DNA from: a virus
Lineage: Duplodnaviria; Caudoviricetes
DNA length: 64,000 bases
Virus record (IMG/VR): IMGVR_UViG_3300037851_000141
Span: 1 to 64,000 of that record
Reading direction: 5' to 3' (one strand)
The notes under the pieces were generated by a model. The model was given only the letters and a program-made list of their open reading frames with translations. It was not told the DNA's origin and did not search any database. A program made the position numbers and the translations under genes. Every line of letters begins with the position of its first letter. Position 1 is the stretch's first letter. Shown piece after piece: positions 1,008-27,881 of this stretch.

Positions 1008-2996
1008 TCAAGTATACGTACAACATACATTACCTCTTGTATATTTAAATGTTATTTTTCCATCTTGCATAATAGCATCGGAATCTATATTTATTATAGC
1101 GCAACCACTTCCTTCATTGGCTTTAAATTGAAATCCAACATATTCAGGCTTTATTTCTTTTTTACCACAAGAATTACCATCGGCCAAAGTTATTAATTTC
1201 ATGACATTAGCTTCAGTTGATGATGGGGCTGCCGGCGACGACGCTATAGAATCTACAAATTTAGGCATTTTATTATATGTCGCAATATGATCACAACCTT
1301 GTAAAGAAGTTGAAACATCAATTGCGATGGTGTCACCAGCACAAACTTCATTGTTTAATATAACTTGACTTATAAAAACTGGTATTTTTACTTTTGTTTT
1401 CTTGTATGTACAATCAGCATTATCGTATGTTATATCAGATACAACAGTTGCTCCAGTATCACTTCTTTGACACTCAATATTACCGTTAATAAAAACACTA
1501 GGATATTTAACATCAACATATGAACATGTTGGGTCGCCCTCTAATGTAACTGAACCACCACCACCGCCACCCGCAACAACAATTCCAACTTTTCCAGCAA
1601 TAAGATGTCGTTTCCTTCCATCTATACATTGATCAGGATTTTCGACCATAGGAACAACTTTACCTGATATATTAGAAACATTTACTATTACTTGTGGACA
1701 TACCGCAATTTCAGTTACAACATTAATAAGTTCAGCTAAACCGCCACCACAACCCGTTCCAGTTTCACCATCCCCATTAGTATCAAAACGTAGACTAGAT
1801 GTAGAGAATATTAAATTTTTACACCCCTTTGATGTCGTCTCTGTACCTATATTATTTACAGCTACAAATGTTCCACCTGGAGAACCACCACATAATGTTG
1901 AAACTCCAACTATACCACTATTATAAAGTAGCCCGCCTTTGTCAGTAGCTTCAAGAGTTAAACCGCAACCATATTCAAGAGTTTCAACACACTCTAAGCA
2001 TATGCCATCGTTTCCTTTAGGGCCAGTAGCACCTGTAGCACCTGTAGCGCCAGCAGGACCAGTAGCTCCCGTAGCACCAGTTGATCCTGGAGGACCGGCG
2101 GGACCAACGGGGCCAGCAGCACCAGTTGGACCAATAGGACCGGGAGGGCCAGGAGGACCGGGAGGGCCAGGAGGACCAGGAATGGTTACAAATCCTGGAT
2201 TACAAGCGAAACCAAAGGCATATGTAAATCCGCGTGTATCACGAATATTCAACATATATACGGTGTTGCTTGACATTCCAGATATTTGTATTGTATGATC
2301 GTCAATAACAGTAAACGTTATATCTCCACATACGCCATATCCAAGAAGACTATCGATAGCATATGTCTGAGAGCATTGATATGTGTCAAATAATAAACAT
2401 TCTGAACCACTTAATAAGATTTGTCCACATCCAGAACAATCAATTCCGACAGTTGTATAAGATTGATTAGAAACATAGCCTAATACGGTATCATCACATT
2501 TTACAGAAATAGATTCTTGACATGTAATTTTCGGATCATATAAGAATCCATAAGGCATCTTTTTACCAACAATTAGGTTAGAACAAAGTATATTTCCACC
2601 ACTCATAGCAGGAACAAATGATAATCCACCGGGAATTGAATCGCTTAAATAAAGATCGCCACCTAATTGACCTGGAATAACTGTAGGATCTGGAGAGTCA
2701 ACTTCAACTAAACCATCACCATCAACAGTAAAATATTCTTTAGTTAATGGGAATCTATACATCATTGGGCCGGGTGTCTGTTTGAGGAAGAAATTATGTT
2801 CACCCTCAAACGACCAAACAACACCAGCAACGTTATTTTTTCCAGGTGCAGCAAGAGCTAACTGATATTTTCCATTGCAATCAAGATATACAAGTTTACC
2901 AATAGCTAACTCTGTAGAACAATTTAACTGATAAATCAATTTAGGATCAGTATGAACGTGACCTGTTGTAGCATCTCTTCTTCTGGTAATTGTCAT
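1008..2996 (-). CDS. Collagen-like, Cys-rich fibre protein (head or tail fibre)
   Basis: 19 Gly-X-Y triplets; N-terminal region resembles cement/decoration-type domains (LVYLD...YQLA...GVV...LYLSD..PG); 28 Cys. Start moved from 3029 to 2996 because of an AAGGA RBS and because the late promoter abuts 3029. Confidence 0.75.
2007..2177 (-). repeat. Collagen triple-helix repeat (Gly-X-Y)19
   Basis: [57 protein letters not shown]. Confidence 0.95.
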
Positions 2997-3029
2997 ATTT
3001 GGTCCTTTTATTATAACATGTCTCGTCAT

Positions 3030-8621: not shown

Positions 8622-11600
8622 TTATTTCTCGAAATTATATCCTTCAAGTGGTTCAGTATTGTTTATATCAGTTTCAGTCACTTTTACGATAGCATTTACA
8701 GAATAATCGACATAACCTCTAAAATCAGAAGTTTCTACGTTTAAGGTAAATCCACTTAGAGATTTATCAGACCACCATGCTTTTATATTCTGACTTGGTG
8801 TGAGAGCAATAGAATAACCAGTTCCTACCTCTGCTGGTAATGGTTTATCAAATACAATAGTTTGAGATACAACATTACCTTCAAAGAGAGCAGAACCTTG
8901 ACGTTCAATTAAGATATCAGATTCGGCATTAAATATTACAACATTGAGAGAAGATTTTGTATCAATGCTATCTGATGCTATTTGGCCTGGAGACTTATAG
9001 AAATTGAATAGTCTTCGACCAAGATAATGTTTAGCATAACTATCTTCTTCAGGTATGGTTGTCAAATCCCAAATAAATGTTCTCTTGGTTGTATCTGTGG
9101 AGTGATACCCCATATAACGACCAGTTGCACTTACATCATTGGTTACTTTATGCCCACCAACAACAACAGAAGCGTTTGTATCTCCGAATGCCATTTGACC
9201 AATATACCAAGTATTCATTTCAGCCCATTCATTAGGATTGCGGAGTTTTTCTGTTGTTCGATCATATATGGTATCATAATCTGGAACTTCGCCACCTAGA
9301 CCAACTCCATCCATATAACGTTTCCATGAAATATCATAAGGTAATGTATTTTTATCTGGTTCCAATCCTATTCCGTTTGAGGGTACCCACTTAGATGATG
9401 GATTATATCTTTGATCTGATTGATATTCTTGAATAAATGATGACGCCCATTCTGTATATTCATTATCGCTTTGTTGACCACTAAATGCTACTGTCATAGA
9501 ACTTGACGCTGCTACAGTCTCACATAAAGTATTTACTGCTGAAAGTGATATATTATTCATAGCAATAAATGTATGATCTTGTTTAATGCTTGTTCCGGTG
9601 ATAAGTAGACGCTCACTAAGAATAGAATTCAGTGTTGTTGCCGAAATAGATAATGTTGTTGTTTCGTGGTTTATATTGCCAGTTTGTAAATCAGTTGATG
9701 TTGTTTCTTGTCGGCGGTCGAAGCTATAGTTAAGGTTAAATGCTCCAGTATTTTCAATCAATAATTTTGACCAAATTGGAATTCCCCATTTTTGTTCTGT
9801 TATTGGGGAGAAGTTTGCTGTAAGTTGAATGATATTTGATATATTTGGGCCACAATCAGTTAATTGAGCGTTCCAATCTTGAAGTTGAGTTTTAACGCCA
9901 ACCATTACTCCATCATCTTGAGTCATATTGAAAGTTAAGATACTGATAGTTCCACTCATGATAAATGGAAGTTCTGAAGATGTTAATAATGTGTTCTTCA
10001 GTAATCTAAATGTATGTGATGTTGCTGATAATGGGGTTTGTGTTCTTATAGAATCATAAATTTCGGCCATTGAATTGAAAGTAAGAATACCGACACCACC
10101 AAAATAGAATAATGTTGGAGTTGGGTCAGAATTTGTGTTATATGTGAATGATTCTGATAATGAATAATTTATTTCTACAGTTCCGGTTGAATTTACTTTA
10201 ACATCAGTAAACTCAAATAATTGTGTATTTCCAGAAATTGATAGTATATTAGATGGATATACTGATGTTGTTTCAGAGTCAATTCTAAGATTACAGTTAT
10301 TGATGTAGAAAGTTCCATTAGTTGTATTTGTAGAATCACTTACAGTTGCTTTGACTCGGAATGTTCCCCCAATAAGTAGTGTTTTTGATATTCCGATTGA
10401 TGTAGTTCCAAGGCTATGATCAATCGAAACGTTGCTCTCATCTCCAGTTTGTGGGGCTATTGGTGCTGGATTTGTTGGCAATACTGATATAACTGTTATT
10501 GCTGGGAAGTTATCGTCAAATGAATATGCTAAAGTTTCTTGGTTATTGCGATATCTTGGATCATTGAACAATTGATTATCAGTGAATATGGTTTGCCAAG
10601 TTGGAGTTTCCCAGCAAGAACTTACGCCGGATAATATAGCAGGATAATCTTTACCAGCATATGAGACTGTGTTGCTATTATAATCTTTAGTATCATCTCC
10701 ACATATAAAATCAGATACAGATGTGGCAGTATTTATGTCGGGATTTGTATTCAATATTTCAACGTTTATAGAACCAACAGAGTTATGTATACCACCCCAG
10801 AACAGCGCATGAGATTGATCACCAACACCACAATGCCAATAAACCGCTTCTAACATATTTTGACGACGAATCCAAGTACCATCTTTTAGCTCATATACGA
10901 GGTCAAGAATTCTATCTTTTTCAAGTTCGGTTCTAACAATATCGTCTTGAACTATATGAGAATAGCCTTCACGATATTTCTCATAAAGTCTTGTTATTAC
11001 ACCATCTATGTTATTGAATTCGCAACGTCCACCAGTTGAAATACCAGCCAAATCATTTCCAACATACACCATACCATGACATCTAACTGGATATTCAAGA
11101 GCAGAATCTATAGACACATAGCTAACTGTTATTTCGTTGTTGCTAACTGTCGTTGTTGCTGTTTGTGATGATATAAGTTGAGTACAATCACAATTGCTCT
11201 CGCCCAAATATAATATCCTAACATTCTCAAATCCAATTGATGAATATGGATTTGCTATTCTCAGTGTACTATTAGGTTCAGATGAGCAGAAATCATACTG
11301 TTTACGAGATGGGCGACTTTCGAGATAGAATTCCAAATCTTCTAATGATGCGGCATTGTTATCAAATATATTATCTTGAACTTGTTCATTTATAAAGAAT
11401 ATAACTTGACTACTATAACTTCCAGATAATGATTCGGTCTGTGATGCTATTGTACCACCAGAGCAATCTTCAGTTTGACCAAGATAGTCAAGTCTAAAGT
11501 TAGCAATACTCTGAATTCCATTGGCACCAACAAGTTTTATCTTAGAATTATCATATGGAACGCAGAATTTATAATCAGAAATTTCTTCTACAGTAAATGA

Positions 11601-14507
11601 TCCCGCTGTAATATCGTTTACTAATACATTTAATACTGGAGTTGCCGATACAGCAGAGGTTCCCATATAACAAACTTCAACAACTACTGAACCATAGGAA
11701 GAATTATTATCAGACCAATTTCCAGTTGAATCGTGATATCTCAGTCGCATTACAGATTTAGCATACTCATTCGTGACTATTTGAGTATCTGATGTTGTAA
11801 AAGCTAATACATTAAAATTGTCATTTATTATTACATCAACTGCTTGTAAAGTATCAGCACATGGACAAGATTCTTTTCCACGATACGATAAACTTAATGT
11901 AACTGTTCCAGTATTATCACTATAATCATCGTCATGGATATCATAGAAAGCAACTCTTATTGATTTTGGTGAGCCTTGTGTGGCATCAACGCAGAAATCA
12001 TGATACCTCTTAATTGGATTATATGTATATCCTATATCCATATAATCTTCTAAATCTTCTTCAGTTGAAAACTCTGCGGCCCAAATAGTATCAGTTAAAA
12101 CACCATCTATATAAATCTTAAAACAAGCTGAATATATATCTGGAGTTGTGTTTGTCATAACTGAACCAGAAACATAAGTTATTCTATAAGTACCACAAGT
12201 TTCAACAACAACAGTTTGTCCAATATCATTAGTTCCAGGTATATTTAAGGTTGATACTATTGTTGGATCCGTGCCACCAGTTCCAGGATCTTCAACTTGT
12301 CCTTCCAAGAATCTTATTTGATAATTACCAACATATGGAAGTTCTATTTCTGTACCAGCATCTTCCCAACCAGGAATAGTTAAAGCTGTTGATAATATTT
12401 CTTGACAAGGGACGTTTGCCATTGTAGATAAATGTACCAGATTATATTTGCCAGCATTTTCTACATCAATTTCTTTGCCGGTTGAATCTCCAGTATTTAT
12501 GGTTATTACATCTTTTATTATTTGTCCACCGCTACTAAATCCACCATCAATATATTCTATTCTATATTTACCGCAGGATGGCAGTGATACAGATGATCCA
12601 GTTTCAGATGTACCGTCAATCGTTAATACATCTTTTATGACAGATTGAACAGAATCTTCAATAATAGTTGATGTCGTAGAACCAGAATTTGTACTTGAAA
12701 TTATGTTTGTGGTATTTATTTTTTCGTATGTTGATATTATTTCATCATATACAGTTGAACCATATGAAATATAAGATTCTTCGGCTCTCGTAATTAGGTG
12801 TGATCTTCCAGATGTATTTCCACCATAAACAAATCCAGTTATATTAGATACCGCATACCGAACTGTATTATCCGTATTTTGTGTAGCTTCTGATTTTTCA
12901 CGAACGAAGTCAAGAACAATTTGGTCATCATCTTCAGTTAATGCGAAATTTTGTATTAGTGATTCTACGCCAAACTTATCTTGACGAGCATAAGTTTGAG
13001 CAGCAAGATAACCAGCACCATCACCACGCGAAACGTTTAGTTGTAAGTTTGATATTGTCTTGAAATATGATAATGCTGGGTCATCACCACGAACAAATAT
13101 TTCAGCAGTATTGAGTACGCCAGATTTACTATATTCTGAGAATTCTTTATTATTTTCGGTATTGAATTGAGAATAACCACCAATAACAGCACAAGAACTT
13201 CCACCAACACCACCTTGAACGTGGAAGCATCTTGGTGTGTTTAGACTAATAAGAGTGTTTTTTAGAAATCCATCTGTTTGCCATATTTCAGTTGTTGATA
13301 GTATTTCTGTCTTTTTACTTTGAGTTGAATCAGTTTTGATGCCACCAGTTACTATACCATTGTCTCTGGTTCCCGATGATCTACCGAATGAACGTGGGAT
13401 ATTAAGGACTCCGATGTTATGTGCGTTAGTATCTGATTCGGCGCTTCTCCAGTTTATAGAATCAATGGTACCAAGAAAATCCGGCTTAGAAATATCATAA
13501 TTTGGGTTTAATGATAGTTGTCCACTTATCTTGTGTGAAATTTCTAATGGGCCGGCTGTAGTTTCAGTATAATTTATTTCATTTGATTTTTGTTCACATG
13601 TATCTGATGTATATGACCCAAGTTCACCAAATGTTCCAATATTTGATGTATTTATTAATCCGCCAACCCAATGAGCAATAGCAGTATCAGAATATGTTCC
13701 AGTATTTTGAGAATTTCTTATTTGTGATTCATCTAATATTGTTGTTGACGTTTCATCTTTTATACGAACACCTAATGTACTCTTGGTGTCATAATAGTGT
13801 CCAAAGAATGATGGGTCGTATGTTATATTAAGATTGAGAAGGACATCTGCTATCTTTAGTTTATCAAATGGTTTTGTGCTTATTACTAAATCTGGAGCAG
13901 TAAACCAACCACCATTAATAAAATCTGTTGATGTAATAAATCCAGTATATGCTGCCGGATTTGATAAATATTTCTTATATTCGTCATTAACCCATTTATC
14001 CGGCGACCAAAATTCTATAAACTCATTTCCTGATGTTGATACTGAAACATTCTCATATCTTGTATTTTCATTTATTGTATCTGTTGAAACTCGTTTAGTC
14101 CACCACACATCACCAAATTTTGATAACTTATGTATAACCATGAAACTATCAATATTTTTGACGAAATCATATAATGCTATTTCTTCAACTTCTATATCTT
14201 GGAATGATAGTTGTTGTTTGTATTCATCCCATAGAATATTTGATGTTGCGTATTCCCACAATTGCCGCAATAAAATTTTATCTATTTTATCTGTAGAACC
14301 ATCAATCAAAAAGGACTGAGACGACCACTCATCCTTGAATGTCATCTCAGTCCCTTGAGCAGACGTTTCGGCAGTTAGACTAAAGAACGCATTTCTATAA
14401 GTCGGTACGAATACTCGACAATCATTCTCTTTATGAATGCTAAACTTCAAGCCAGTATAGGCATTGTAAAAATCATTCCAATTAATAGGCTCGTCATTTA
14501 GCGCCAT
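8622..14507 (-). CDS. Giant virion protein with an interrupted Kelch-type propeller and lectin-like inserts
   Basis: Kelch-like blades (LNTPRCFH..AVIGG..LNTAEIF; YWHCGVGDQSHALFWGG; AFGDTNASVVVGG), internal repeats and the shared C-terminal beta module. Confidence 0.65.
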   Translation of the reverse strand: MALNDEPINWNDFYNAYTGLKFSIHKENDCRVFVPTYRNAFFSLTAETSAQGTEMTFKDEWSSQSFLIDGSTDKIDKILLRQLWEYATSNILWDEYKQQLSFQDIEVEEIALYDFVKNIDSFMVIHKLSKFGDVWWTKRVSTDTINENTRYENVSVSTSGNEFIEFWSPDKWVNDEYKKYLSNPAAYTGFITSTDFINGGWFTAPDLVISTKPFDKLKIADVLLNLNITYDPSFFGHYYDTKSTLGVRIKDETSTTILDESQIRNSQNTGTYSDTAIAHWVGGLINTSNIGTFGELGSYTSDTCEQKSNEINYTETTAGPLEISHKISGQLSLNPNYDISKPDFLGTIDSINWRSAESDTNAHNIGVLNIPRSFGRSSGTRDNGIVTGGIKTDSTQSKKTEILSTTEIWQTDGFLKNTLISLNTPRCFHVQGGVGGSSCAVIGGYSQFNTENNKEFSEYSKSGVLNTAEIFVRGDDPALSYFKTISNLQLNVSRGDGAGYLAAQTYARQDKFGVESLIQNFALTEDDDQIVLDFVREKSEATQNTDNTVRYAVSNITGFVYGGNTSGRSHLITRAEESYISYGSTVYDEIISTYEKINTTNIISSTNSGSTTSTIIEDSVQSVIKDVLTIDGTSETGSSVSLPSCGKYRIEYIDGGFSSGGQIIKDVITINTGDSTGKEIDVENAGKYNLVHLSTMANVPCQEILSTALTIPGWEDAGTEIELPYVGNYQIRFLEGQVEDPGTGGTDPTIVSTLNIPGTNDIGQTVVVETCGTYRITYVSGSVMTNTTPDIYSACFKIYIDGVLTDTIWAAEFSTEEDLEDYMDIGYTYNPIKRYHDFCVDATQGSPKSIRVAFYDIHDDDYSDNTGTVTLSLSYRGKESCPCADTLQAVDVIINDNFNVLAFTTSDTQIVTNEYAKSVMRLRYHDSTGNWSDNNSSYGSVVVEVCYMGTSAVSATPVLNVLVNDITAGSFTVEEISDYKFCVPYDNSKIKLVGANGIQSIANFRLDYLGQTEDCSGGTIASQTESLSGSYSSQVIFFINEQVQDNIFDNNAASLEDLEFYLESRPSRKQYDFCSSEPNSTLRIANPYSSIGFENVRILYLGESNCDCTQLISSQTATTTVSNNEITVSYVSIDSALEYPVRCHGMVYVGNDLAGISTGGRCEFNNIDGVITRLYEKYREGYSHIVQDDIVRTELEKDRILDLVYELKDGTWIRRQNMLEAVYWHCGVGDQSHALFWGGIHNSVGSINVEILNTNPDINTATSVSDFICGDDTKDYNSNTVSYAGKDYPAILSGVSSCWETPTWQTIFTDNQLFNDPRYRNNQETLAYSFDDNFPAITVISVLPTNPAPIAPQTGDESNVSIDHSLGTTSIGISKTLLIGGTFRVKATVSDSTNTTNGTFYINNCNLRIDSETTSVYPSNILSISGNTQLFEFTDVKVNSTGTVEINYSLSESFTYNTNSDPTPTLFYFGGVGILTFNSMAEIYDSIRTQTPLSATSHTFRLLKNTLLTSSELPFIMSGTISILTFNMTQDDGVMVGVKTQLQDWNAQLTDCGPNISNIIQLTANFSPITEQKWGIPIWSKLLIENTGAFNLNYSFDRRQETTSTDLQTGNINHETTTLSISATTLNSILSERLLITGTSIKQDHTFIAMNNISLSAVNTLCETVAASSSMTVAFSGQQSDNEYTEWASSFIQEYQSDQRYNPSSKWVPSNGIGLEPDKNTLPYDISWKRYMDGVGLGGEVPDYDTIYDRTTEKLRNPNEWAEMNTWYIGQMAFGDTNASVVVGGHKVTNDVSATGRYMGYHSTDTTKRTFIWDLTTIPEEDSYAKHYLGRRLFNFYKSPGQIASDSIDTKSSLNVVIFNAESDILIERQGSALFEGNVVSQTIVFDKPLPAEVGTGYSIALTPSQNIKAWWSDKSLSGFTLNVETSDFRGYVDYSVNAIVKVTETDINNTEPLEGYNFEK

Positions 14508-16770: not shown

Positions 16771-19700
16771 TTAGATAATCTCTTTCCACCATTCAATTCC
16801 ATTCTTTATAGCAAGGTAATGGACGGTGCATGCGGTTGGTGAACTTGTCCTTACTCTAAACTGATTTATACTCTTTTCAGCCCAATAAATATTTATATTT
16901 TCATTAGCAGAAAGAATTAATGAATAGCCAGGATTTGTCGGATCTATACTCATGGAACCTGGATCGCCTTCAACACCATATTCTGGTTTTATTATCAATT
17001 CGTTATTATACCAAGACCCGAGATTGGCTGTGGTTGGTTGTGGAAACACGATATTTAGATCATCACCCGGCCATTGCGCATATGAAGTACCATTTTCATC
17101 GATAAATACACCATTTGATAACGTGCGTTTACCTACAAACATACTATTTGCGGTAAATACACCACCAAATACATCTCTGTGGAACGCCATCCAAGATACT
17201 TCACGTTGGAGATAATAACTTGACGAAATTGTAAACCTATCTGGACATAAAATATTCCAATATAGTTTCTGATTTACGGGATTAGAAATAAATACAAAGT
17301 AATCGCTATTTCTAAAAGGCTTGTCAAATTTGATTACTTCACTCTTAACTTTACCATTTATTTTAAGAACGCCAGACTTGAACACGCTACTATCTGTTTG
17401 TTGAGCTATAACCCAATCTATAATTTGACTAAACCCGTTGAATGAAGATAGCATATTGAACTTGCTATTATCACTTCGTTCATAGTATGTATTTACGTTT
17501 GAGCTTGGAGTCATGGCGATTAAGCCAGTTACTCGTCTGTTATTTGTTGTTCCCATATTACCCTCTCCTGATTCCAGAACAGAAATATTGAATGGTTTGA
17601 TTTCATTGATTTCAGTATAACTTGGTTTAAAGATTTGAGCCGCATCACGAATAAATTTCTCAAAATCTTCTTTATTTTCTGTATCTAAGAATAGTTCTGG
17701 TTCCTCCAAGTTTTCAACATCGAAGTTTAGATTGAATTTTTGAGACTTGAATATTTTAGCAATTCCGAACATATATTCTTTTTCAATTTGAGTCAATCTA
17801 ATTTCGTTATCTAAGGTTTTTTCATATACAACTGGTTCGCCAGCATTGAATATTTTACCATCATTGAAAGCTAAACGAGAATCATCTAATATTTTATCAC
17901 AATGCCATACGCCGATTGCTGCTGTTGGATATATTGATGATTTGATGAAGGTATAGTTATTGTATATGTTTTTAGTATCTTCAGTTGTATCAATTTTATT
18001 ATAGTACATAAACAATTTAATATTATTTTGTACCGAATCTTGTAATCTAACCCAAATAACTATGAAATCTTTATCGTAATCATAATAAGCGATCTTAAAT
18101 TTCAATGGAATCTTGCTATTATTTTCGCTGAAGATTCTTATTGAACGATCATTTATGGATATCTTACTAAAATCAAATGGATGCTCAACTTCAAGAAATG
18201 GGTTATATGAATTTGATTCCGCTTTATATCCGTTTCCGTAGATTATTATGGGAACAGTAATATCGCTACTCATTTCATAATTAGATGTTGTTGGAGTTTT
18301 CAATCCACGGAATTTTATGATACGATAGTTTCTAAACTCAGCTTGAACTGGATTGAGTTGTGGATTGACCGTAAATTCAGGACCGACATCAGCTATAGTT
18401 TTATTTAATAATGAATTATGTAGATTTAATATTCTGTAAAGATTACCAGTTTCAGTACGAACATTATATAAATCGCAGTAATTTGTTCTATAACTTATTG
18501 AATTATCTGGATTTACAATAACATAACTAAGGTCTGTAATGTTATCGGAGTAGGTAATAACATCAGCAAGAGGTATTTCATTGCCTTTATAATAGACTTT
18601 TATATTGATAACGTATTTACTCTTCTTAAAGGAACGAGAGAATATTTGATTTGCTGATATTTGTATTGTTATAGGTTGGAATACATCAGGTTCAATTACC
18701 CATGACACATCTCGTATATCCAGATTTTGGTAGAGTTTACAAGCGCCATCAGTTCCAGAGGATCCTGTTGTTTCGGTGGATGAACTTGGAACGAGATTAT
18801 TATGTTCAGTGATTATAACTTCTTCATTTTTATTTAAGTAAACGGAACGCCACATATTACAGTAGAAATTATATTGAAGAGAATAAACTGGAGGCTTGGT
18901 TGAGTCTGTTCTATGTGTAGCTAATATAGTCTTCCATTCATTCTTATAATTTCTATCGGCCCATTCAATAGGTATAGACAATGACCCATAATTATTGCTA
19001 TCAATTATATTTTGTTGAAATAACGGTTTCTCATAAATAGTACCATCAACATTATTATTTATTGTATATGTTGTTTGATATGATTGTTTCAATGTCGAAT
19101 ATATATTAGTGTCATTATTTACTGAAAGTGATGCCGTAAATGAGATATTAGTCAATCCATCTACATCAGTTGGCAATTCGTATGTTATTTCTCTTGTACC
19201 AATTGAGAAAGCGTGTCCGTGAACTGAATTCATATCAACATAACGAGTTCCATCAAGGAGATATTTTATTCTTCTATGTGCGTCAACGTTTGTAGAAATT
19301 TCATTGGAGTCTGTTATAAGAAGAGTTGAATCTGATTTTTTGGTATTATTTATTGATGTCTTATATGAAACAGATGGTAATGATGATGGATATAATCTTT
19401 GAGAGAATACCGTAGAATTGGTGCCTGGATAATGTTTATAACCACTATATTTTTCTGGATCTTGTATATCTTTCTCAAAAATGTAGATTAACTCATTCTT
19501 ATTTAATACGATATCTTCAATGTTATTCAATGCTTGATTTCTCATATCTTTGGTGAAAATAATAAACAAATCATCAAACATTTCAACATTTATTGCTTGT
19601 ACTTTTTCTCTTATTATTTTGTAATCTAATACTTCATATGATTCAATTCTACGATTATCATATCCAGCAACTATAGAATCGAATAATTTATCATCAGTCC

Positions 19701-20853
19701 ATATATAAGTTGCCAATTCATCTACTGCGAGTCTCTTATAATTTTCATATGAACCGAAGAACTGTATACGACAAGGATCTACGGTTGTGATATCCTCATT
19801 CCAGAATATGTAAAATTTGTTTGAGTCATAATAAGATTTTTGTATTGATATTATTGATTGTCCAGTAAATTCCTCACCAGATGCTAATATAGGATTGAAA
19901 TTTAGTTGAACTTGAGTATATTTATTTTTTGTTGGGTCATCATCTGGTTTCACACTTAAAACAAAGTAATTTCTTGAAGATCCAACATTTACATAATAGA
20001 AAATAAGGACTTTATCTCCAACAACAAACGTATTAACGATATTAAAGTATTCAATATTAACATCTTTTGGCAACAATTCTTTCATTATAATTGGTGTGGA
20101 ATAACCAGTTGTAATTGTATAATCGTACCAGTTTGCTAATGGAACTCGACCTTTATTTTTATCATAGGTTATGTCTATACTTGTTATATTACCGTTTCCA
20201 TATTCTTCAACTATCAATTGGAATGATTCAGTTATTTCATCATCCGGCATCATAAGTTTATCAACAACAATTTCTCGTTTAATCCATAACTTAAGCACAC
20301 ATTCTGGTGGAAGTTCTATTGGTAAATCTATAGCGTCTAATGATTTCTTGAATGTATAAGATAACAATTTTTTCGTACTATCATATTCATCATCAATTAC
20401 TAAAGATGGGTTTATAGCTCTACCAAACGGTGCTGGTATAGTTCTCTTTGCTTCACTAATAGTATAAACACCTTCTATAGCTATACTTATGTCTGATATA
20501 GCAAATGCGCCAGATGCTCCAGGGACAATTGAGGTTCTTGGATCTGGAACAACATCTGATACTAAAATTTTATTAAGTGGTATTGATATAGTACTACTTC
20601 TATTTGTTATGTATACGGCTCTATAATTAACTTGAGACTTTATAACATCTGTTGGAACTATAGAATCAAAAACTTCGTTTGTATTATTTTGGAGATTGAA
20701 CTTAATAACTTCTTGATTTGCTATTATCTCAGTATCAAAAAACATACCACCAAGAGACTTGCCAAAAACCTGACGGTCTAATCCAATACCAACTGGATCG
20801 TTGTTGGCATTACCTCTTGTAAGATTAAAGGTTATTTGGTTATTAGATGACAT
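16771..20853 (-). CDS. Large baseplate/fibre protein with a DUF2341-like domain and two C-terminal beta modules
   Basis: SIRIF..KFKIAYYD..IVIWVRL..KLFMYY (DUF2341-like), IGVWH, N-terminal SLGG..VFD..NYRAVYITN motif. Its ATG overlaps the stop codon of the 2342-aa gene (TGATG). Confidence 0.6.
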   Translation of the reverse strand: MSSNNQITFNLTRGNANNDPVGIGLDRQVFGKSLGGMFFDTEIIANQEVIKFNLQNNTNEVFDSIVPTDVIKSQVNYRAVYITNRSSTISIPLNKILVSDVVPDPRTSIVPGASGAFAISDISIAIEGVYTISEAKRTIPAPFGRAINPSLVIDDEYDSTKKLLSYTFKKSLDAIDLPIELPPECVLKLWIKREIVVDKLMMPDDEITESFQLIVEEYGNGNITSIDITYDKNKGRVPLANWYDYTITTGYSTPIIMKELLPKDVNIEYFNIVNTFVVGDKVLIFYYVNVGSSRNYFVLSVKPDDDPTKNKYTQVQLNFNPILASGEEFTGQSIISIQKSYYDSNKFYIFWNEDITTVDPCRIQFFGSYENYKRLAVDELATYIWTDDKLFDSIVAGYDNRRIESYEVLDYKIIREKVQAINVEMFDDLFIIFTKDMRNQALNNIEDIVLNKNELIYIFEKDIQDPEKYSGYKHYPGTNSTVFSQRLYPSSLPSVSYKTSINNTKKSDSTLLITDSNEISTNVDAHRRIKYLLDGTRYVDMNSVHGHAFSIGTREITYELPTDVDGLTNISFTASLSVNNDTNIYSTLKQSYQTTYTINNNVDGTIYEKPLFQQNIIDSNNYGSLSIPIEWADRNYKNEWKTILATHRTDSTKPPVYSLQYNFYCNMWRSVYLNKNEEVIITEHNNLVPSSSTETTGSSGTDGACKLYQNLDIRDVSWVIEPDVFQPITIQISANQIFSRSFKKSKYVINIKVYYKGNEIPLADVITYSDNITDLSYVIVNPDNSISYRTNYCDLYNVRTETGNLYRILNLHNSLLNKTIADVGPEFTVNPQLNPVQAEFRNYRIIKFRGLKTPTTSNYEMSSDITVPIIIYGNGYKAESNSYNPFLEVEHPFDFSKISINDRSIRIFSENNSKIPLKFKIAYYDYDKDFIVIWVRLQDSVQNNIKLFMYYNKIDTTEDTKNIYNNYTFIKSSIYPTAAIGVWHCDKILDDSRLAFNDGKIFNAGEPVVYEKTLDNEIRLTQIEKEYMFGIAKIFKSQKFNLNFDVENLEEPELFLDTENKEDFEKFIRDAAQIFKPSYTEINEIKPFNISVLESGEGNMGTTNNRRVTGLIAMTPSSNVNTYYERSDNSKFNMLSSFNGFSQIIDWVIAQQTDSSVFKSGVLKINGKVKSEVIKFDKPFRNSDYFVFISNPVNQKLYWNILCPDRFTISSSYYLQREVSWMAFHRDVFGGVFTANSMFVGKRTLSNGVFIDENGTSYAQWPGDDLNIVFPQPTTANLGSWYNNELIIKPEYGVEGDPGSMSIDPTNPGYSLILSANENINIYWAEKSINQFRVRTSSPTACTVHYLAIKNGIEWWKEII

Positions 20854-23800
20854 CAGATATCCTCGAATATAAGGTTGAATCTATTATCATTTATATATAT
20901 TTCTTTTACCTTTTTCTGAGCAAAATCCATATAGGTATCTAATGTATCATGATAGAATGTGTTGTCTTTGATTAAAATAGGCAACTCTTCATTAAGGTTA
21001 AGGTTGAATACTCGTACTATTATATCATATCTCATTGGTTTACCATCTAATGAGAATACTGATACACACTCTGCTACTGGATCAATTGGTAGCGCATCCA
21101 ATTCTCTTATAGTCAATTCATCATTAAGTTGATCCGTAGTTAAAGTTTGTAATGCTAAGAGAGTACAATCAATAGTAAATGTTATCTCGTCTTCAATCTT
21201 AAGGGCAATCTTACTTCCTATTACATTGCCTTCTTCATCCAATTCAGCAACATATTCGGCACCATTTCTGACTAATACAACGCGAGATAAACCATCAATT
21301 ATATCAAAAAAGTCAGACAGTCTAACTATTCCATATGAATCTGAACCTGCTTCAATTGACCAAATTATAGTGTGATCACCAGCACCCCAATAATTTACAC
21401 CAATACCAGAGTCAGTCTTATATTGTTTCTGTAATATGAATACCTTATCTTGAACAACATAGAATGATTCAACATCCCAACCAAATACATTGGGGTCTTT
21501 ACCTTCTATAGAATAATATAACTTACTATCTAATTGTACATACTCAACGAAAGTTCTTGACTTATCATATTTCTGAACATCCACACTATCGGTTGTATTA
21601 AACTTAACTTTTACCTTATTTAATAAACCATTTAATGATTTTTCGTCTGTGGTCGTTGAGAATGTATATTGTTTAGGTGTATTAACTGTGATTTTGGCAG
21701 TTCCTACATAAGTATTTGGGTTGAATACTCGGAACCCAGAATAGAATCCGTTAACTGGTAATGTAGCGGCAAATTCATTCTTAAAGTTTTCTAATGTGTA
21801 TTCTGAACTGACTTTATTACCTAACTTGGCTGGATATGTGACTCCAAGTTCTTCAAGACCAATGAGAACCGCTTGAAGAGTTTCATATTCACCCTTAAGA
21901 TAACGTTCAGATAATTTCTCATATTTCTTATTTGTATTATAATTTAATATAAGTCTGCGATCTTCACCACGTTCATTGAAATAAATCTTTATACTATCTG
22001 TAGTGACTCTGGCAGATATTGTATACCATGTATCGACTTTTATGCTTCTTGTATTATATTCACCCCAAGATGCCAGATAAGTCTCATTTAAAGCCTTCGT
22101 TTCTTGGTCATAACTTCTCATACCAAGACCAATATCAAAGTTATAAGTACCAAATCCAACAAAATAGAAATCCGAAATACCCCAATCAAAATCAGACTTA
22201 TTATAATTGTTCTCGGCTTTTAAGATAAGCTCAAATTTCTTCTGATACCCATTGTCTATAATATCTTTATCAAATATAACATCACAAGAAACTTCATAAT
22301 CATAAGATTCAACATCTGATAATACTATAACATCTCTATATCCATAATCATTGTTTATTCCAACCGTTTTATTTACATCAGCTTCACCAGAGAATTGATT
22401 TGGATTGGTATTCTCAAACTTATCAGAAGCTTTATAACATTCTTTGCCTTTATAAGTTGTTATTTCATAAGGAGTTGAATCCGTTGTAAATTTAAGAGTT
22501 GTATCTGGTGTACGTTTACCTATTACATAATTGTCATTTTCATCTTGTATAAACGAAACCCACTTCATATCTCTTGTCTGGTTGAAATCATCAACTAATA
22601 CTTTTGATTCGGTATTCTTGAAGATGTTATCAAAATAGAATTCAACAATAATAGAAGAATCTCCAAGGAATCTGCTAAAGTCAAATTGTTGGTTATTTAG
22701 AACTAATGTTGGAGTATTCGTTACTGTTGATGATGATATATAGTAGTAATCGTTTGGCAGGATATAATGGTCAACAAACACGCCATCAACAAATCTACGC
22801 CACTTATTATATGGTTGAACAATTGGTGGAACTTGATAGAACGCAATCAATCCATCAGATACTCCAAGAGTAATGGAAGTGTTGAATGATTCTGGATAGT
22901 TTTCTGGATCGCATGCTTGGGCTGCTTTAGAATTACTATAACTTATTTTTGGAATAGCAGCAAATGGAGGGACATAATTTTGATAGAATGCCCAATATTT
23001 GTTTATTTCTATGACTGAGCTTGGAACTGATACAAAAGCCGACTTCATGGTAAAGCAACTCATGAATTCTTCGTTCCAATCTTCATTCGTCCATTCCGCT
23101 CTATTATTAGCATCATTTAGATAATCGTTATTAGCGTGCGTATTAAACCAATTGAATAACCCAACTGGCATTATTGAACGTTCTTCCGTTGAATCAGCAT
23201 TTATATATGAGCCGACAGTTAATGTTGTTTCTCCATTTACCTTTTTTGTTTCAAGAGGAATAAAGGCATTCATCTTGACATCAATTGGAATAAGTTGTTC
23301 AGTATCTATGGTAAATCTGGTTTCTGATGCTTCAAATCCAATATTAGAATAGGTTCCAGAAGGAGAGAATGTACCAATTCCAAATGTGTTTCTTTCAGCT
23401 ACAGCAAAATCATGATCCCAAGATGTACTCGAAACACACCATTCAGACTCAAGTAAATAATCACCACTCAAAGATACTGTTGTTCCAGTTAATACAACCT
23501 TTGTTCCACTATTAGAATCAGAAGTCAATCCAGAGAATATTGATGCTGATTTATCTGATGAATATCTAACTTCAACATCTCTCTTCATCCAAACTTTCTT
23601 AGGAACCCACCAGTTATATTCATTAGTAAAAAGTGTATCAGAATCAGCATCATCTTTGGTAGGATATTTAGCTTCAATAGTTTTTATAATATTGACTATA
23701 GTTTCAGGCACATAGAATGCGTTTGGTAGATTAGCTTTATCACATGAGGTATTGATATTATCTGCTTTTTCTATAAATTCGCCGGGTTCACATGATGTTG

Positions 23801-26800
23801 GTGTGTGGACTTTGATTGGTATAATATTATTGCTTGTAAATTTTTCAGCGAATCCAGTTTGTACATCAAGATAATAATTACAACGAATACGACGACTATA
23901 CTTATCTTCCCAATAGTTATATTTTTGTATACTTATTTCAACGTCTGCGGAATCTGCGAAAGTAAATCCATCAAATGATTTATTAGCATATACACCCAAT
24001 AGATTGACAGTACCGCCACCTTTAAGAATTTCTGCTGGAGGTAAGAATATATACGTATCTTTTTGTAATTTACCAATTGGAATAAAATATCTTATTGTAG
24101 TTAAATTGATAGTTTCGTCAGTATATTTTGGATAGTTGGATGTTGCTGTAGACGGGAGAGTTATATCAAATAAACCCCAAACCGTTGATTGGTCGCAATA
24201 TCTACAAATAAGTTTATCCATTGTGTCAGAATTGATAACACGAACACCAATAACTTCTGCTGATGATGTTCCAGCTAAAGATTTGTTTCTATATATTGGT
24301 GCGAATACTTCATTATCTCTTAGTCCAACTCTTGGGATATTCCATTTTTCTGAAACTGAGAACGGACATACTTCTTCCCAAAGACCATTGAATACCTTAT
24401 TTGATGATGATTTTAATATTGTATTTAGTGTTGTTTCAAGAGTTAATGATGCGAAATCTGATGATCTGGTTAATTGAGATATATATTCAAGAACTTGTCC
24501 ACCACTTATAGCAACGGTATGCGGCATTATTGTAAATGTATCTGATAATATAGGAGACATACCAGCTTGAGCCGATGATTCATATACATTCCCAATACGA
24601 GTCCAATTTATAAACGGCTCATAGAAGCTACCATAAGAAATATAAAGAGAGTTCAATATATCTTCTTGTTTTGTAAATGTTGATTTAATAAATGTTTCAT
24701 CTATAATTACATTGAATCTACTACCCCAGGCATCAGCAGATATATTATCAACAAATACCTTATTTACTGAATTATCTGTTATTTCACCAAGAGTGCTGCC
24801 CAAGTCATAAACAGTTTGCCCATTATAATTTTCGGTTACTGTGTATCTAAATGTTGATGATGTTGGTTTATCTACGTTTGAGAGTCCATATGAGTTGGCT
24901 TGAAGAACCTTATCATCTCTCGAATCCAACCATTTTGGCTTAATTTCTTTCCACTTATCAACGGTTTCATTCAATTTTTCATCAACTAAATCAAGTGGTT
25001 GTACAAAGAAACGATTTATTTTTATTGAAGCTGATTGAACAGCAAAACCACAATAACCAGATTCATCAATTGGTTCATATTTATCTGATATTTCAACAAT
25101 CTTACCTTCTACATCAAGTATATCAGTCTGAGCATCATCTTGTATAAGCGAAACTTCAGATATTATTGTTTCATATTCAACATTATCAACATATTTATCA
25201 ATTTCTATTTCTTCTGTATTTTTTATGGCATTATATGTATTAGTATATGTTGTATTGGTTCTAAACTTAATAGATACTTTATTATCTTGAACAGTTAAAT
25301 CAATATCATAGAAAGTTCCAGCATTTAATTCAATAAGATGCCCAAATGAATCAAGTATTGGAGTTGAGAATATTCTTTGGTCTAAATCAGTTGCGTCTGG
25401 ATTTAGATTAAGATAGCGATAATAAGGAATTTCTAAGTTAGCATCATACCCAACATAGGCAAGACTAAATTCACTTGTTTTACCGTTGAACATTAGAGCA
25501 TAATAAGAGTCAACGTCTGCGTATAAATCTTTACCACGGTTTAGTCCACGGAATAATATTTGGAATGAATTTAGTGGTCTTTGAGATAATAACACTTCAT
25601 CAGCTATACGAACGTTATCTGGAGTAAACCTAACTTTTATTTGTACGTCTTTATATTTTTGTTTCTTTGATAGAATACCGGAGACTATATCACGATTGGG
25701 GTTTGGAGTCTCGTAAGCTATTTTAACTATCTCACCAACTTCTAATACAGTTGTTGGTACATAGAGAATGCCCTTACCTAATGTATCCTCAATAGTTTTT
25801 TCTTTTTTGATTAAAGTATATAATGAACTTGTTGGTATAACTTGTTTAATTATATAGTTTATAAATCTGGTGTCTGATGCTGTTGTTCCAATTAGTTCTT
25901 CCCACATTTGCCAAGAAAGTTTAATTTTCTTTATAGCTGATGAACCATATGTTGTTTTAACTTCAAATGGATAATAACCGGCAGTCAGATACTTCCAATC
26001 GCTTGTCTTTTCACTCTCATTTTGTTTGATTTCAATAAGTCCATATTCGGTATTAGCTATAGTAAGTGGAATTGAAACCCCATTATCAATAACACCAGCC
26101 AAAGTTGTACCAGATATACGAGCGAATTGAATGTTATCAATAGATTGTAATGCTTTTATTTGAGTAAGGGTATATTTAGTTTCAGACAGACTAAATAATC
26201 CAACATGTTGCTGACTTAAATCTGTTGGATTGCCAGTATTACCAACATCAAGGCTGAATTTATAATAACCAGCTTGAGATACTTTAACAAATCCACGAAC
26301 ACAAACAAACACATCCGAATCTGTAGCAAATGTAATTTCATCTAATTGGAATAGATTTGGATTTGTTGATGTTGATACATAGTTTATTGCTGGAAGAATG
26401 TCGTTATATTCTGGATTGGTTAATTGACTTTGAGATACACCAACGATCTGTGGAGGAACAGTAACACCAGAATTCCAATTAGCCCATAGATAATCATCAT
26501 TCGGATCACCATATGTACCTTCTTCGCTTTCTAATGGTGAAGTTGGTAAATATCCAAAAGTTGTTATTATACGCTGAACATAATTATCGGGAGCCTTCCA
26601 TATTTTATAATTTCCACCAAAAGATGTTTCAATATTACCTACATATGATGGATTGTTTTCTATTGAGAACCCTTCAATTCTACATGCTAAATCAACAGGA
26701 GAGAAACATAAAGATGATAATGATTCGCTTCCGCAAGTCTTTATTTCTTCTTCAATAAATGACCTTCCATCATCTCGTTGAACATTATGTATATTTGGTG

Positions 26801-27881
26801 GTATTTCATGAACTTCAAACGCAGCTAAACAATTGTTGGATTCAGAATCAATAATATCAGCAGGATAAGAGTGTCTTGAAACATAACGGTAATTATCTAT
26901 AGTCAAATCATTTACACCACCAACGAATTGAGCTAAACTATTATCCCACCCAATGACATTAATTCCCTTGAACTTAAATTCGTTATTGGTTTTCTCTAAC
27001 GTTGGATCGACAAAGAAATAATCAATAATAGGACTTCCAACAGTTATTCCAAATGTCTGAGTCCACATATCTTTAACATCAGTTGTAAAATCGTATAACT
27101 TAAAGAACTCATTTATTGATTCTGCTGACCCTTTTTGCTTGAATAAATCAGACGTTTCAATAATAAAGAGTCTGAACTTATCTATTTCTGATTCTGTTGC
27201 TGTACCATTTTCTATTTTCTGAAAGATATCATAATCTAAGAATGGAGTAAAATCCGATGAATCTTGTTCTGAATAACCTATTTTCTTAGCGTAGAATTCT
27301 TTATGATTAAGTGTATCGCTGAATAACTTTAAGAATTCTGAAGGGGTATGCTCAACGTCATATATATTTGATACATCGTAAATCTTTTTATACATGTTAT
27401 CAAATAACTTAGATGTTGCGAATAATAAATCTCTAAAGCCTTGACTTGTCTCGTATGCTTTAAGATGAGGGGTTGTCATGTGAGATTTAAGCCACGCGAC
27501 AACCATTGAATTGATTGTTATTATTTGTGGTGCCGAAGATTTTACACGATAGAATTGACCAGTTGTTTCATCGTACAATTTCTCGGATATAGCACTTAAT
27601 GAAACGTTATAATCACCATAAAATTGATAAAGTTTGGTTGGACTTGTTTCATTTGAGTAAGTTTTATCACCAAAATCCCAAGAATAAAAATCTACTTTAT
27701 TTACATAAGTCGTTGAATAGTCTATAGTTATATCAAGAGGATTTAGCCCATCTTCATCCATTATAACAGTAAACTCAGACTCTTGTAAATACCCTATTGA
27801 TGTAGTATTAGTAAATTCTACTTTTTGTGGAGCGAATATAAGAGTTGGATCGTAAGTAAATCCGGCAGCAAAATAAGTCAT
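20853..27881 (-). CDS. gp7/P2-gpI-like baseplate wedge protein with PKD, PA14-like and ConA-like domains
   Basis: PKD (YSWDFGD..SP..Y..YG.YNVSL), DVEHTPSEFLKLF..FKQKGSAESINEFF (gpI/gp7 motif), RGFVKVSQAGYYKF..LTAGYYPF (PA14-like); lies directly after gp6. Confidence 0.7.
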   Translation of the reverse strand: MTYFAAGFTYDPTLIFAPQKVEFTNTTSIGYLQESEFTVIMDEDGLNPLDITIDYSTTYVNKVDFYSWDFGDKTYSNETSPTKLYQFYGDYNVSLSAISEKLYDETTGQFYRVKSSAPQIITINSMVVAWLKSHMTTPHLKAYETSQGFRDLLFATSKLFDNMYKKIYDVSNIYDVEHTPSEFLKLFSDTLNHKEFYAKKIGYSEQDSSDFTPFLDYDIFQKIENGTATESEIDKFRLFIIETSDLFKQKGSAESINEFFKLYDFTTDVKDMWTQTFGITVGSPIIDYFFVDPTLEKTNNEFKFKGINVIGWDNSLAQFVGGVNDLTIDNYRYVSRHSYPADIIDSESNNCLAAFEVHEIPPNIHNVQRDDGRSFIEEEIKTCGSESLSSLCFSPVDLACRIEGFSIENNPSYVGNIETSFGGNYKIWKAPDNYVQRIITTFGYLPTSPLESEEGTYGDPNDDYLWANWNSGVTVPPQIVGVSQSQLTNPEYNDILPAINYVSTSTNPNLFQLDEITFATDSDVFVCVRGFVKVSQAGYYKFSLDVGNTGNPTDLSQQHVGLFSLSETKYTLTQIKALQSIDNIQFARISGTTLAGVIDNGVSIPLTIANTEYGLIEIKQNESEKTSDWKYLTAGYYPFEVKTTYGSSAIKKIKLSWQMWEELIGTTASDTRFINYIIKQVIPTSSLYTLIKKEKTIEDTLGKGILYVPTTVLEVGEIVKIAYETPNPNRDIVSGILSKKQKYKDVQIKVRFTPDNVRIADEVLLSQRPLNSFQILFRGLNRGKDLYADVDSYYALMFNGKTSEFSLAYVGYDANLEIPYYRYLNLNPDATDLDQRIFSTPILDSFGHLIELNAGTFYDIDLTVQDNKVSIKFRTNTTYTNTYNAIKNTEEIEIDKYVDNVEYETIISEVSLIQDDAQTDILDVEGKIVEISDKYEPIDESGYCGFAVQSASIKINRFFVQPLDLVDEKLNETVDKWKEIKPKWLDSRDDKVLQANSYGLSNVDKPTSSTFRYTVTENYNGQTVYDLGSTLGEITDNSVNKVFVDNISADAWGSRFNVIIDETFIKSTFTKQEDILNSLYISYGSFYEPFINWTRIGNVYESSAQAGMSPILSDTFTIMPHTVAISGGQVLEYISQLTRSSDFASLTLETTLNTILKSSSNKVFNGLWEEVCPFSVSEKWNIPRVGLRDNEVFAPIYRNKSLAGTSSAEVIGVRVINSDTMDKLICRYCDQSTVWGLFDITLPSTATSNYPKYTDETINLTTIRYFIPIGKLQKDTYIFLPPAEILKGGGTVNLLGVYANKSFDGFTFADSADVEISIQKYNYWEDKYSRRIRCNYYLDVQTGFAEKFTSNNIIPIKVHTPTSCEPGEFIEKADNINTSCDKANLPNAFYVPETIVNIIKTIEAKYPTKDDADSDTLFTNEYNWWVPKKVWMKRDVEVRYSSDKSASIFSGLTSDSNSGTKVVLTGTTVSLSGDYLLESEWCVSSTSWDHDFAVAERNTFGIGTFSPSGTYSNIGFEASETRFTIDTEQLIPIDVKMNAFIPLETKKVNGETTLTVGSYINADSTEERSIMPVGLFNWFNTHANNDYLNDANNRAEWTNEDWNEEFMSCFTMKSAFVSVPSSVIEINKYWAFYQNYVPPFAAIPKISYSNSKAAQACDPENYPESFNTSITLGVSDGLIAFYQVPPIVQPYNKWRRFVDGVFVDHYILPNDYYYISSSTVTNTPTLVLNNQQFDFSRFLGDSSIIVEFYFDNIFKNTESKVLVDDFNQTRDMKWVSFIQDENDNYVIGKRTPDTTLKFTTDSTPYEITTYKGKECYKASDKFENTNPNQFSGEADVNKTVGINNDYGYRDVIVLSDVESYDYEVSCDVIFDKDIIDNGYQKKFELILKAENNYNKSDFDWGISDFYFVGFGTYNFDIGLGMRSYDQETKALNETYLASWGEYNTRSIKVDTWYTISARVTTDSIKIYFNERGEDRRLILNYNTNKKYEKLSERYLKGEYETLQAVLIGLEELGVTYPAKLGNKVSSEYTLENFKNEFAATLPVNGFYSGFRVFNPNTYVGTAKITVNTPKQYTFSTTTDEKSLNGLLNKVKVKFNTTDSVDVQKYDKSRTFVEYVQLDSKLYYSIEGKDPNVFGWDVESFYVVQDKVFILQKQYKTDSGIGVNYWGAGDHTIIWSIEAGSDSYGIVRLSDFFDIIDGLSRVVLVRNGAEYVAELDEEGNVIGSKIALKIEDEITFTIDCTLLALQTLTTDQLNDELTIRELDALPIDPVAECVSVFSLDGKPMRYDIIVRVFNLNLNEELPILIKDNTFYHDTLDTYMDFAQKKVKEIYINDNRFNLIFEDI

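Follow-up and report, generated by a model that had tools for sequence, protein, structure and literature searches.

Four copies of one beta-sandwich domain, very probably nested inside one another, in a tail-module protein of a jumbo phage

Recursive insertion of domains has been described for Si3 of the cyanobacterial RNA polymerase beta' subunit (RpoC2). In its crystal structure, domains SBHM-2 to SBHM-5 are built from distant sequence segments (PMC10895346), and an ECOD-based survey describes a six-level recursive insertion in Si3 (PMC13114784). No phage case emerged from our literature searches on nested or recursive insertion of domains in the fibres and tail proteins of phages. Here, we analyse a protein encoded in a 64,000-nucleotide stretch of viral DNA (Duplodnaviria; Caudoviricetes; positions 1–64,000 of IMG/VR record IMGVR_UViG_3300037851_000141; hereafter, the window). 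The gene of interest, taken from a list of open reading frames (ORFs) with their translations, occupies window positions 8622–14507 on the minus strand and encodes a protein of 1961 amino acids, P0001. Residues 622–1104 of P0001 contain four N-half repeats (N1–N4) and four C-half repeats (C1–C4), which very probably make up four copies of a single domain, nested as D1[D2[D3[D4]]]. In this arrangement, D1 would consist of N1 and C4, D2 of N2 and C3, D3 of N3 and C2, and D4 of N4 and C1. Each copy would be inserted in the strand 3–strand 4 loop of the copy before it, and a beta-hairpin of the host domain would in turn carry the whole stack as an insert at its tip.

A preliminary description of this DNA proposed four N-half repeats followed by four C-half repeats, with only the innermost pair contiguous. 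The repeats are as described: all 21 of the 21 motifs listed are present, in the order given, in a single ORF (residues 626–1102; window 11202–12632), and residues 622–1104 hold both sets. All of these elements are encoded on the minus strand. The N-halves, of ~36 amino acids each, are assigned as the first three strands of their domains: N1 (residues 622–658; window 12534–12644) to the outermost, basal domain D1, N2 (residues 662–697; window 12417–12524) to D2, N3 (residues 703–738; window 12294–12401) to D3, and N4 (residues 749–785; window 12153–12263) to the innermost, tip domain D4. The C-halves are assigned as the last five strands: C1 (residues 790–877; window 11877–12140), together with a helix, to D4, C2 (residues 888–949; window 11661–11846) to D3, C3 (residues 958–1012; window 11472–11636) to D2, and C4 (residues 1029–1104; window 11196–11423), together with helices, to D1. 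Only N4 and C1 are contiguous; the former ends at about residue 785 and the latter begins at about residue 790.

Local alignment against 300 shuffles distinguishes the two families of repeats. The N-halves match one another much better than shuffled sequences do (z = 4.4 to 14.0), while the C-halves are more diverged (C1 with C4, z = 10.2; C3 with C4, z = 6.1; C2 with the others, z ≤ 2.4), and N-halves are unlike C-halves (z ≤ 3.1). One generic N-half hidden Markov model (HMM) and one generic C-half HMM recover 4 + 4 units in P0001, and the same models recover units in homologues that lie outside their training set. A self-BLAST of the region returned the identity match alone.

The central proposal of the preliminary description was that these halves pair in a nested manner (N1–C4, N2–C3, N3–C2 and N4–C1). 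Two lines of evidence support it: predicted structure, and variation among 15 homologous proteins. AlphaFold2 was run (i) on residues 612–1118, with an 8-sequence alignment (run 1; mean predicted local distance difference test score [pLDDT] 75, predicted template modelling score [pTM] 0.35), and (ii) on residues 340–1262 (run 2; pLDDT 70–90 in the stack and <50 in the flanks). In run 1, every N-half contributes three strands and every C-half five, with a helix added in C1 and C4. The models were aligned to 48,161 PDB chains with VIA-align, giving single-domain matches of 81–108 aligned residues. The ranges spanned by these matches (in model numbering) widen layer by layer: N4+C1 at 136–266 (run 1) and 407–538 (run 2); N3+C2 at 89–340 and 92–337 (run 1) and at 362–611 and 358–615 (run 2); N2+C3 at 49–402 (run 1) and 322–690 (run 2); and N1+C4 at 10–493 (run 1) and 279–765 (run 2). 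Recursive homotypic insertion is recognized by domains that are composed of two distant chain segments in mirrored (last-in, first-out) order, and this is the order seen here. Ranges of the parallel type were absent from both VIA searches, save for one odd 6i5o_A row at 98–266 and 391–538. Two outcomes had been named beforehand as refuting the proposal—N-halves that fold among themselves, and parallel pairing—and neither was seen.

Natural variation provides evidence on the pairing that is independent of AlphaFold. Two large protein searches yielded 14 relatives (1404–2097 amino acids, all metagenomic), giving 15 proteins including P0001. The relatives align end to end at 34–51% identity, and the full-length homologues share the same start. 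According to the generic HMMs and the alignment, the counts of N- and C-halves agree in 15/15 proteins: five have 4/4, seven have 3/3, one has 1/1, and two have 0/0 (i.e., depths of four, three, one and zero layers). Type-specific HMMs reveal which halves are kept together. P0004, a depth-3 protein, retains N1, N3 and N4 along with C1, C2 and C4, and is without N2 and C3; P0008, the depth-1 protein, keeps N1 and C4 alone. N2 and C3 are jointly absent in the seven depth-3 homologues, leaving mirrored gaps in the multiple alignment. That layers have been gained or lost among orthologues as matched N/C pairs is strongly supported. In P0008, a ~70-residue filler rich in Gly, Pro and Leu lies between N1 and C4 (residues ~643–715); this could be a decayed remnant of the inner layers, or an unrelated small insert.

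The degree of conservation of the halves also bears on the pairing. Among the depth-4 proteins, conservation ranks N1>N3>N2>N4 and C4>C2>C3>C1. These two orders match perfectly under nested pairing (1 chance in 24), and are reversed under parallel pairing. Likewise, N1 is the most central N-half in terms of similarity and C4 the most central C-half; centrality correlates positively in all N1–C4 pairings (r = +0.44 to +0.64), and negatively in all N1–C1 pairings (r = −0.75 to −0.87). N2 is most similar to N1, and C3 to C4, such that both halves of the additional layer in the depth-4 clade look like those of the outer domain, D1.

The relatives that carry no stack show where it is inserted. In P0001, the stack is flanked by two segments of the host domain that are each modelled as a strand (residues 596–604, window 12696–12722, before the insert; residues 1125–1134, window 11106–11135, after it; both minus strand). 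In the depth-0 proteins, P0014 and P0015, these strands are joined through a single Gly. Since the flanking strands are directly joined in these proteins, the whole stack sits at the tip of a host-domain hairpin; its insertion there adds one further level of nesting. In a midpoint-rooted tree built from the flanks only, the depth-4 proteins group together and depth-3 P0004 is their sister; a separate depth-3 clade and a depth-1/0 clade make up the rest. This topology indicates at least three changes in depth, each of which may have been a gain or a loss.

Several of the linkers carry Cys residues. Just after D1, the returning linker has a CxC motif (Cys1106/Cys1108; window 11184–11192, minus strand). 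Both of its Cys residues are found in 13/13 stack-bearing homologues, and neither varies among the first eight homologues aligned. The DFC motif of C4 is also invariant in the first eight homologues aligned. A second CxC motif (Cys881/Cys883; window 11856–11876) lies in the returning linker after C1, and single Cys residues are found after C2, after C3, and in the N2–N3 linker. The linker Cys residues might form disulfides between linkers, or metal sites, and so tie one chain crossing to the other.

On either side of the stack there are blade-like motifs containing GG, which reappear beyond another large insert, of ~500 amino acids (residues ~343–600, 1126–1262 and 1765–1815; window 9060–13420). 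Residues 343–506 (positions 4–167 of the run 2 model), in a stretch with pLDDT <50, score Z 8.9–9.3 against Kelch domains, namely those of KLHL7, Keap1 and Kelch13. No Pfam match, to Kelch repeats or otherwise, was obtained for residues 330–620 or 1110–1330 at E ≤ 10. Closure of a propeller across the insert was looked for in run 2 and not seen, in flanks of pLDDT <50. A Kelch-like propeller is a plausible, model-based candidate for the host domain.

As modelled, the repeated unit is an 8-stranded, jelly-roll-type beta-sandwich, and its structural matches show fold class rather than family membership. In the two VIA searches, the innermost domain (N4+C1) aligns best with EclA-N (6ygq_A; Z 9.1 and 9.3), PllA (5odu_A; Z 8.7 and 9.0) and PA-IL (3zyb_A; Z 7.6 and 7.7), with 99–104 of 121 residues aligned, a root-mean-square deviation of 2.8–3.3 and 12–16% identity. 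These three are the top rows for D4, yet they lie within ~1–2 Z of unrelated jelly rolls. The other layers match carbohydrate-binding modules (CBM29/35/36/51), a lambda gpJ domain, BclA-C and capsid jelly rolls at Z 6.5–8; N2+C3 matches the CBM29/35/36/51-type jelly rolls at Z 6.5–7.5, a score range common to the fold. No global look-alike was found when the whole model was searched with Foldseek against the PDB and BFVD (E-values of 1e-5 to 1e-7, but template modelling scores [TM-scores] of 0.06–0.15), and a shape search of the ESM Atlas gave TM ≤ 0.30.

At the sequence level, P0001 has no Pfam match as a whole protein at E ≤ 1 and no PHROG family at E ≤ 0.01, and its sub-segments (including residues 748–885, 330–620 and 1110–1330) have no Pfam match at E ≤ 10; in particular, no Pfam CBM was matched by the whole protein or by the sub-segments scanned, at these same thresholds. 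PF07828, the PA-IL family profile, has no match anywhere in the phage record. Residues 748–955 and the profile of the P0001 family were also searched against PDB sequences, with no matches. Neither the PHROG nor the PDB search gave homology to a characterized fibre or receptor-binding protein. A protein-language-model search gave a weak lead, a PA-IL-containing cluster with a score of 0.86. The term "lectin-like", applied to these domains in the preliminary description, is therefore supported at the level of fold, where PA-IL, PllA and EclA are the best, if borderline, matches of the innermost domain (up to Z 9.1–9.3), and not at the level of sequence, where there is no match.

Two of the domains carry an Asp/Asn-rich loop before the last strand: D4 in C1 (residues 856–867) and D3 in C2 (residues 926–939). 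C3 and C4 of P0001 do not; in the large depth-3 clade, however, such a loop is present in C4. LecA has its calcium loop in this position too, a resemblance that serves as a lead only. The D..DN.G motif, to which the preliminary description ascribed possible calcium binding, is thus a putative calcium site at most.

The record that contains the window is 331,849 bp long, that of a jumbo phage (~332 kb). The window includes a contractile-tail gene set on the same strand as the P0001 gene: tail sheath, baseplate hub, gp6-like wedge, T4-type large terminase, and a collagen-like fibre protein. Upstream of the P0001 gene are those for the sheath, the hub and the gp6-like wedge, as well as two giant ORFs. 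This position, after the wedge genes and the giant ORFs, indicates a protein of the tail/baseplate region, and the assignment of P0001 to the tail/baseplate module of a jumbo myovirus is strongly supported. The gene order of the window is conserved in L001, a locus that includes one of the 14 relatives.

Several neighbouring genes deserve mention. The two giant ORFs, between the gp6-like wedge gene and that of P0001 (window 16771–27881, minus strand), encode 2342 amino acids, with a weak PKD match, and 1360 amino acids; locus L001 has a matching pair of 2327 and 1354 amino acids. At window 1008–3029 (minus strand), a 673-amino-acid protein, likely another fibre of the phage, contains a collagen triple-helix repeat (residues 285–342) and has matches to many PHROGs of tail fibres. 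The T4-type large terminase gene (window 55437–57656, minus strand) carries an intein splicing domain between the N-terminal ATPase and C-terminal nuclease parts (Pfam Intein_splicing, E 2.8e-11), and the ORF adjoining it (window 57631–58803, minus strand) matches the homing-endonuclease PHROG phrog_3339 (E 2.4e-8).

What might the stack do? With three strands running out and five running back, the insertion loop of each domain should lie at the pole opposite the domain termini, and domains joined in this way should stack end to end as a rod, a geometry that draws on the predicted strand order and on general beta-sandwich topology. By our estimate, four such domains in a row would measure roughly 14–16 nm. 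Each junction of the rod would be held by two chain crossings rather than one, with both ends of the rod returning to the host hairpin. Such a rod would place the most variable domain, D4, farthest from the host domain: mean identity is 0.33 in D4 (the least conserved), 0.47 in D1 and 0.61 in the flanks. The Asp/Asn-rich loops of D4 and D3, together with a D4 fold nearest to calcium-dependent lectins of the PA-IL type, point to glycan binding as a likely job for the stack. Under this proposal, an arm extending outward from the baseplate or from a fibre would bind a glycan on the host surface, and its reach would be set by the number of layers (0, 1, 3 or 4 in the relatives). A glycan-binding stalk, suggested by the lectin- and CBM-like fold, the variable tip and the tail-module location, is a tentative assignment to which we give somewhat less than even weight.

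A fuller version of this idea, which as a whole we consider less likely than not, is that of an evolvable, "telescopic" receptor arm. Here, the rod would emerge from a propeller hairpin, with joints of two chain crossings and a calcium-dependent lectin tip; reach would be changed layer by layer; and D2, the newest layer, would have arisen by a two-site duplication of the D1 halves (N1 to N2, and C4 to C3). We know of no simple mechanism for such a coordinated two-site duplication. If true, the system would offer a natural test bed for the birth of discontinuous domains and for the tuning of phage receptor reach.

Taken as a whole, the explanation that we favour—at its core, a nested stack inserted in a hairpin—is likely to be correct, and a number of points weigh against it. 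The composition of each domain was read from the extent of its structural matches, namely where each alignment starts and ends and how many residues it covers, rather than from coordinates, a contact map or predicted aligned error. The alignment behind both models contains only 8 sequences, and the two runs share a method, so they are not fully independent. With a pTM of 0.35, the relative placement of the domains (and with it the shape and rigidity of the rod) is not predicted with confidence. Two of the homologues, P0006 and P0007, are too diverged for clear typing by the type-specific HMMs; their absence of N2 and C3 rests on the multiple alignment. The gain of a middle layer would require two coordinated sequence changes, which is awkward to explain. 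With regard to the lectin, Z-scores of 7–9 are, according to the tool itself, common for beta-sandwiches, and the PA-IL likeness may reflect a shared jelly-roll arrangement only; no Pfam, PHROG or PDB sequence match supports a lectin, and the Asp/Asn-rich loop is loosely conserved, being missing in several homologues.

The shallow alignment and the indirect reading of domain composition lend some weight to the idea that the nested ranges are an AlphaFold2 artefact, and that the N-halves instead form a domain or beta-solenoid of their own, or pair in parallel (N1–C1 to N4–C4). The Cys residues within the repeats fit parallel pairing as well as they fit nesting. The preliminary description had matched a Cys in N-halves 1 and 4 with a DFC motif in the mirror-image C-halves; while the pattern holds as an observation, it is of no use as evidence for nesting over parallel pairing, because N1 and N4, and C1 and C4, each carry a Cys (C3 also carries one, and N2 has Ala instead). 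It was rejected as a discriminator. Other observations do discriminate. Parallel pairing is represented in the VIA searches by nothing other than the odd 6i5o_A row; N2 is lost with C3 rather than with C2, and P0008 keeps N1 with C4 rather than with C1; and both the conservation ranks and the similarity centralities are anti-correlated under it. A self-contained N-domain is at odds with N and C counts that are always equal. We regard these arrangements as very improbable. Less easily set aside, and still quite improbable, is 3D domain swapping: each half would have the partner that nesting assigns to it, but on a neighbouring subunit, and the stack would be an intertwined multimer instead of a monomeric rod. 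Intertwined trimers are common among phage fibre proteins, AlphaFold2 predictions were of the monomer only, and domain swapping would equally allow for equal N/C counts and for the joint loss of N2 and C3. However, in the monomer model each of the four domains is complete within a single chain (pLDDT 70–90), and successive N-halves are joined by very short linkers (3–4 residues between strands) that suit an intrachain ladder. A weaker point is that the host resembles a globular domain of the propeller type and not the shaft of a trimer.

A different kind of alternative accepts the nesting and questions the function: the stack may bind no ligand, and instead act passively, as a spacer or as decoration, to set distances within the baseplate or to shield the host domain, its acidic loops being structural or decayed. 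In line with this, there is no lectin or CBM signal at the sequence level, the Asp/Asn-rich loop has been lost in D1 and D2 of P0001 and in several homologues, and the two homologues without a stack show that it is dispensable for the core role of the protein. On the other hand, the modules that match best in fold bind sugars (PA-IL/PllA/EclA and CBM29/35/36/51), the fastest-evolving domain is the one at the tip, as expected of a host-contact surface, and variable depth is also what the tuning of receptor reach would give. A stack without a ligand is, in our judgement, a serious contender that nevertheless falls on the doubtful side.

Under the favoured reading of a nested stack on a host hairpin, the protein is of interest in several respects. 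The depth series provides material for studying the folding of discontinuous domains, the tolerance of one loop to insertion, and stalks whose two ends return to one point. For phage biology, it suggests a way to tune the reach of a probable receptor-binding module while the anchoring domain remains unchanged. For annotation, it adds a new domain family without a Pfam, PHROG or PDB sequence match, one that ordinary domain callers miss because three of the four copies are split.

How does P0001 compare with systems already described? PA-IL (LecA), PllA and EclA-N (PF07828; 3zyb, 5odu and 6ygq) are calcium-dependent galactose lectins, and modelled D4 superposes on about 100 of their 121 residues. 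Lectins of this type are single, continuous, oligomer-forming domains, and not split hosts for insertions. The lambda gpJ domain (residues 82–207) is, like the VP2 domain of birnaviruses, a beta-sandwich module on a virion surface protein; it is matched by D1 (N1+C4) at Z 7.7–7.9, within the range common to the fold. Birnavirus VP2 has a projection domain inside its shell jelly roll; VP2 of infectious bursal disease virus (IBDV) and of infectious pancreatic necrosis virus (IPNV) are among the top whole-model Foldseek rows, with TM-scores of only 0.08–0.15, i.e., without overall likeness. To our knowledge, lambda gpJ and birnavirus VP2 each involve one level of insertion, not four of one domain.

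The nearer comparison is with Si3. Read as nested, P0001 shares with Si3 a small, all-beta domain whose copies are placed one within another, several domains assembled from chain segments that lie far apart, and an array that is inserted as a whole into a host element; the Si3 array forms an elongated body. The two probably differ in fold, the P0001 unit being a 3+5-strand, jelly-roll-type sandwich with best matches among lectins and CBMs rather than SBHM (the best 50 rows of either VIA search list jelly-roll lectins, CBMs and capsid domains, and no SBHM or RNA polymerase chain). They differ also in their host, which is a phage tail-module protein rather than a polymerase trigger loop. Further, unlike in Si3, the nesting in P0001 is strictly serial, four in four, with close orthologues spanning depths of 0, 1, 3 and 4. 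P0001 is thus most likely a clear natural example of a rare but already known build; what it adds to Si3 is a probably different fold, a setting in a virion tail protein, and a graded series of orthologues with 0, 1, 3 or 4 layers at one position.

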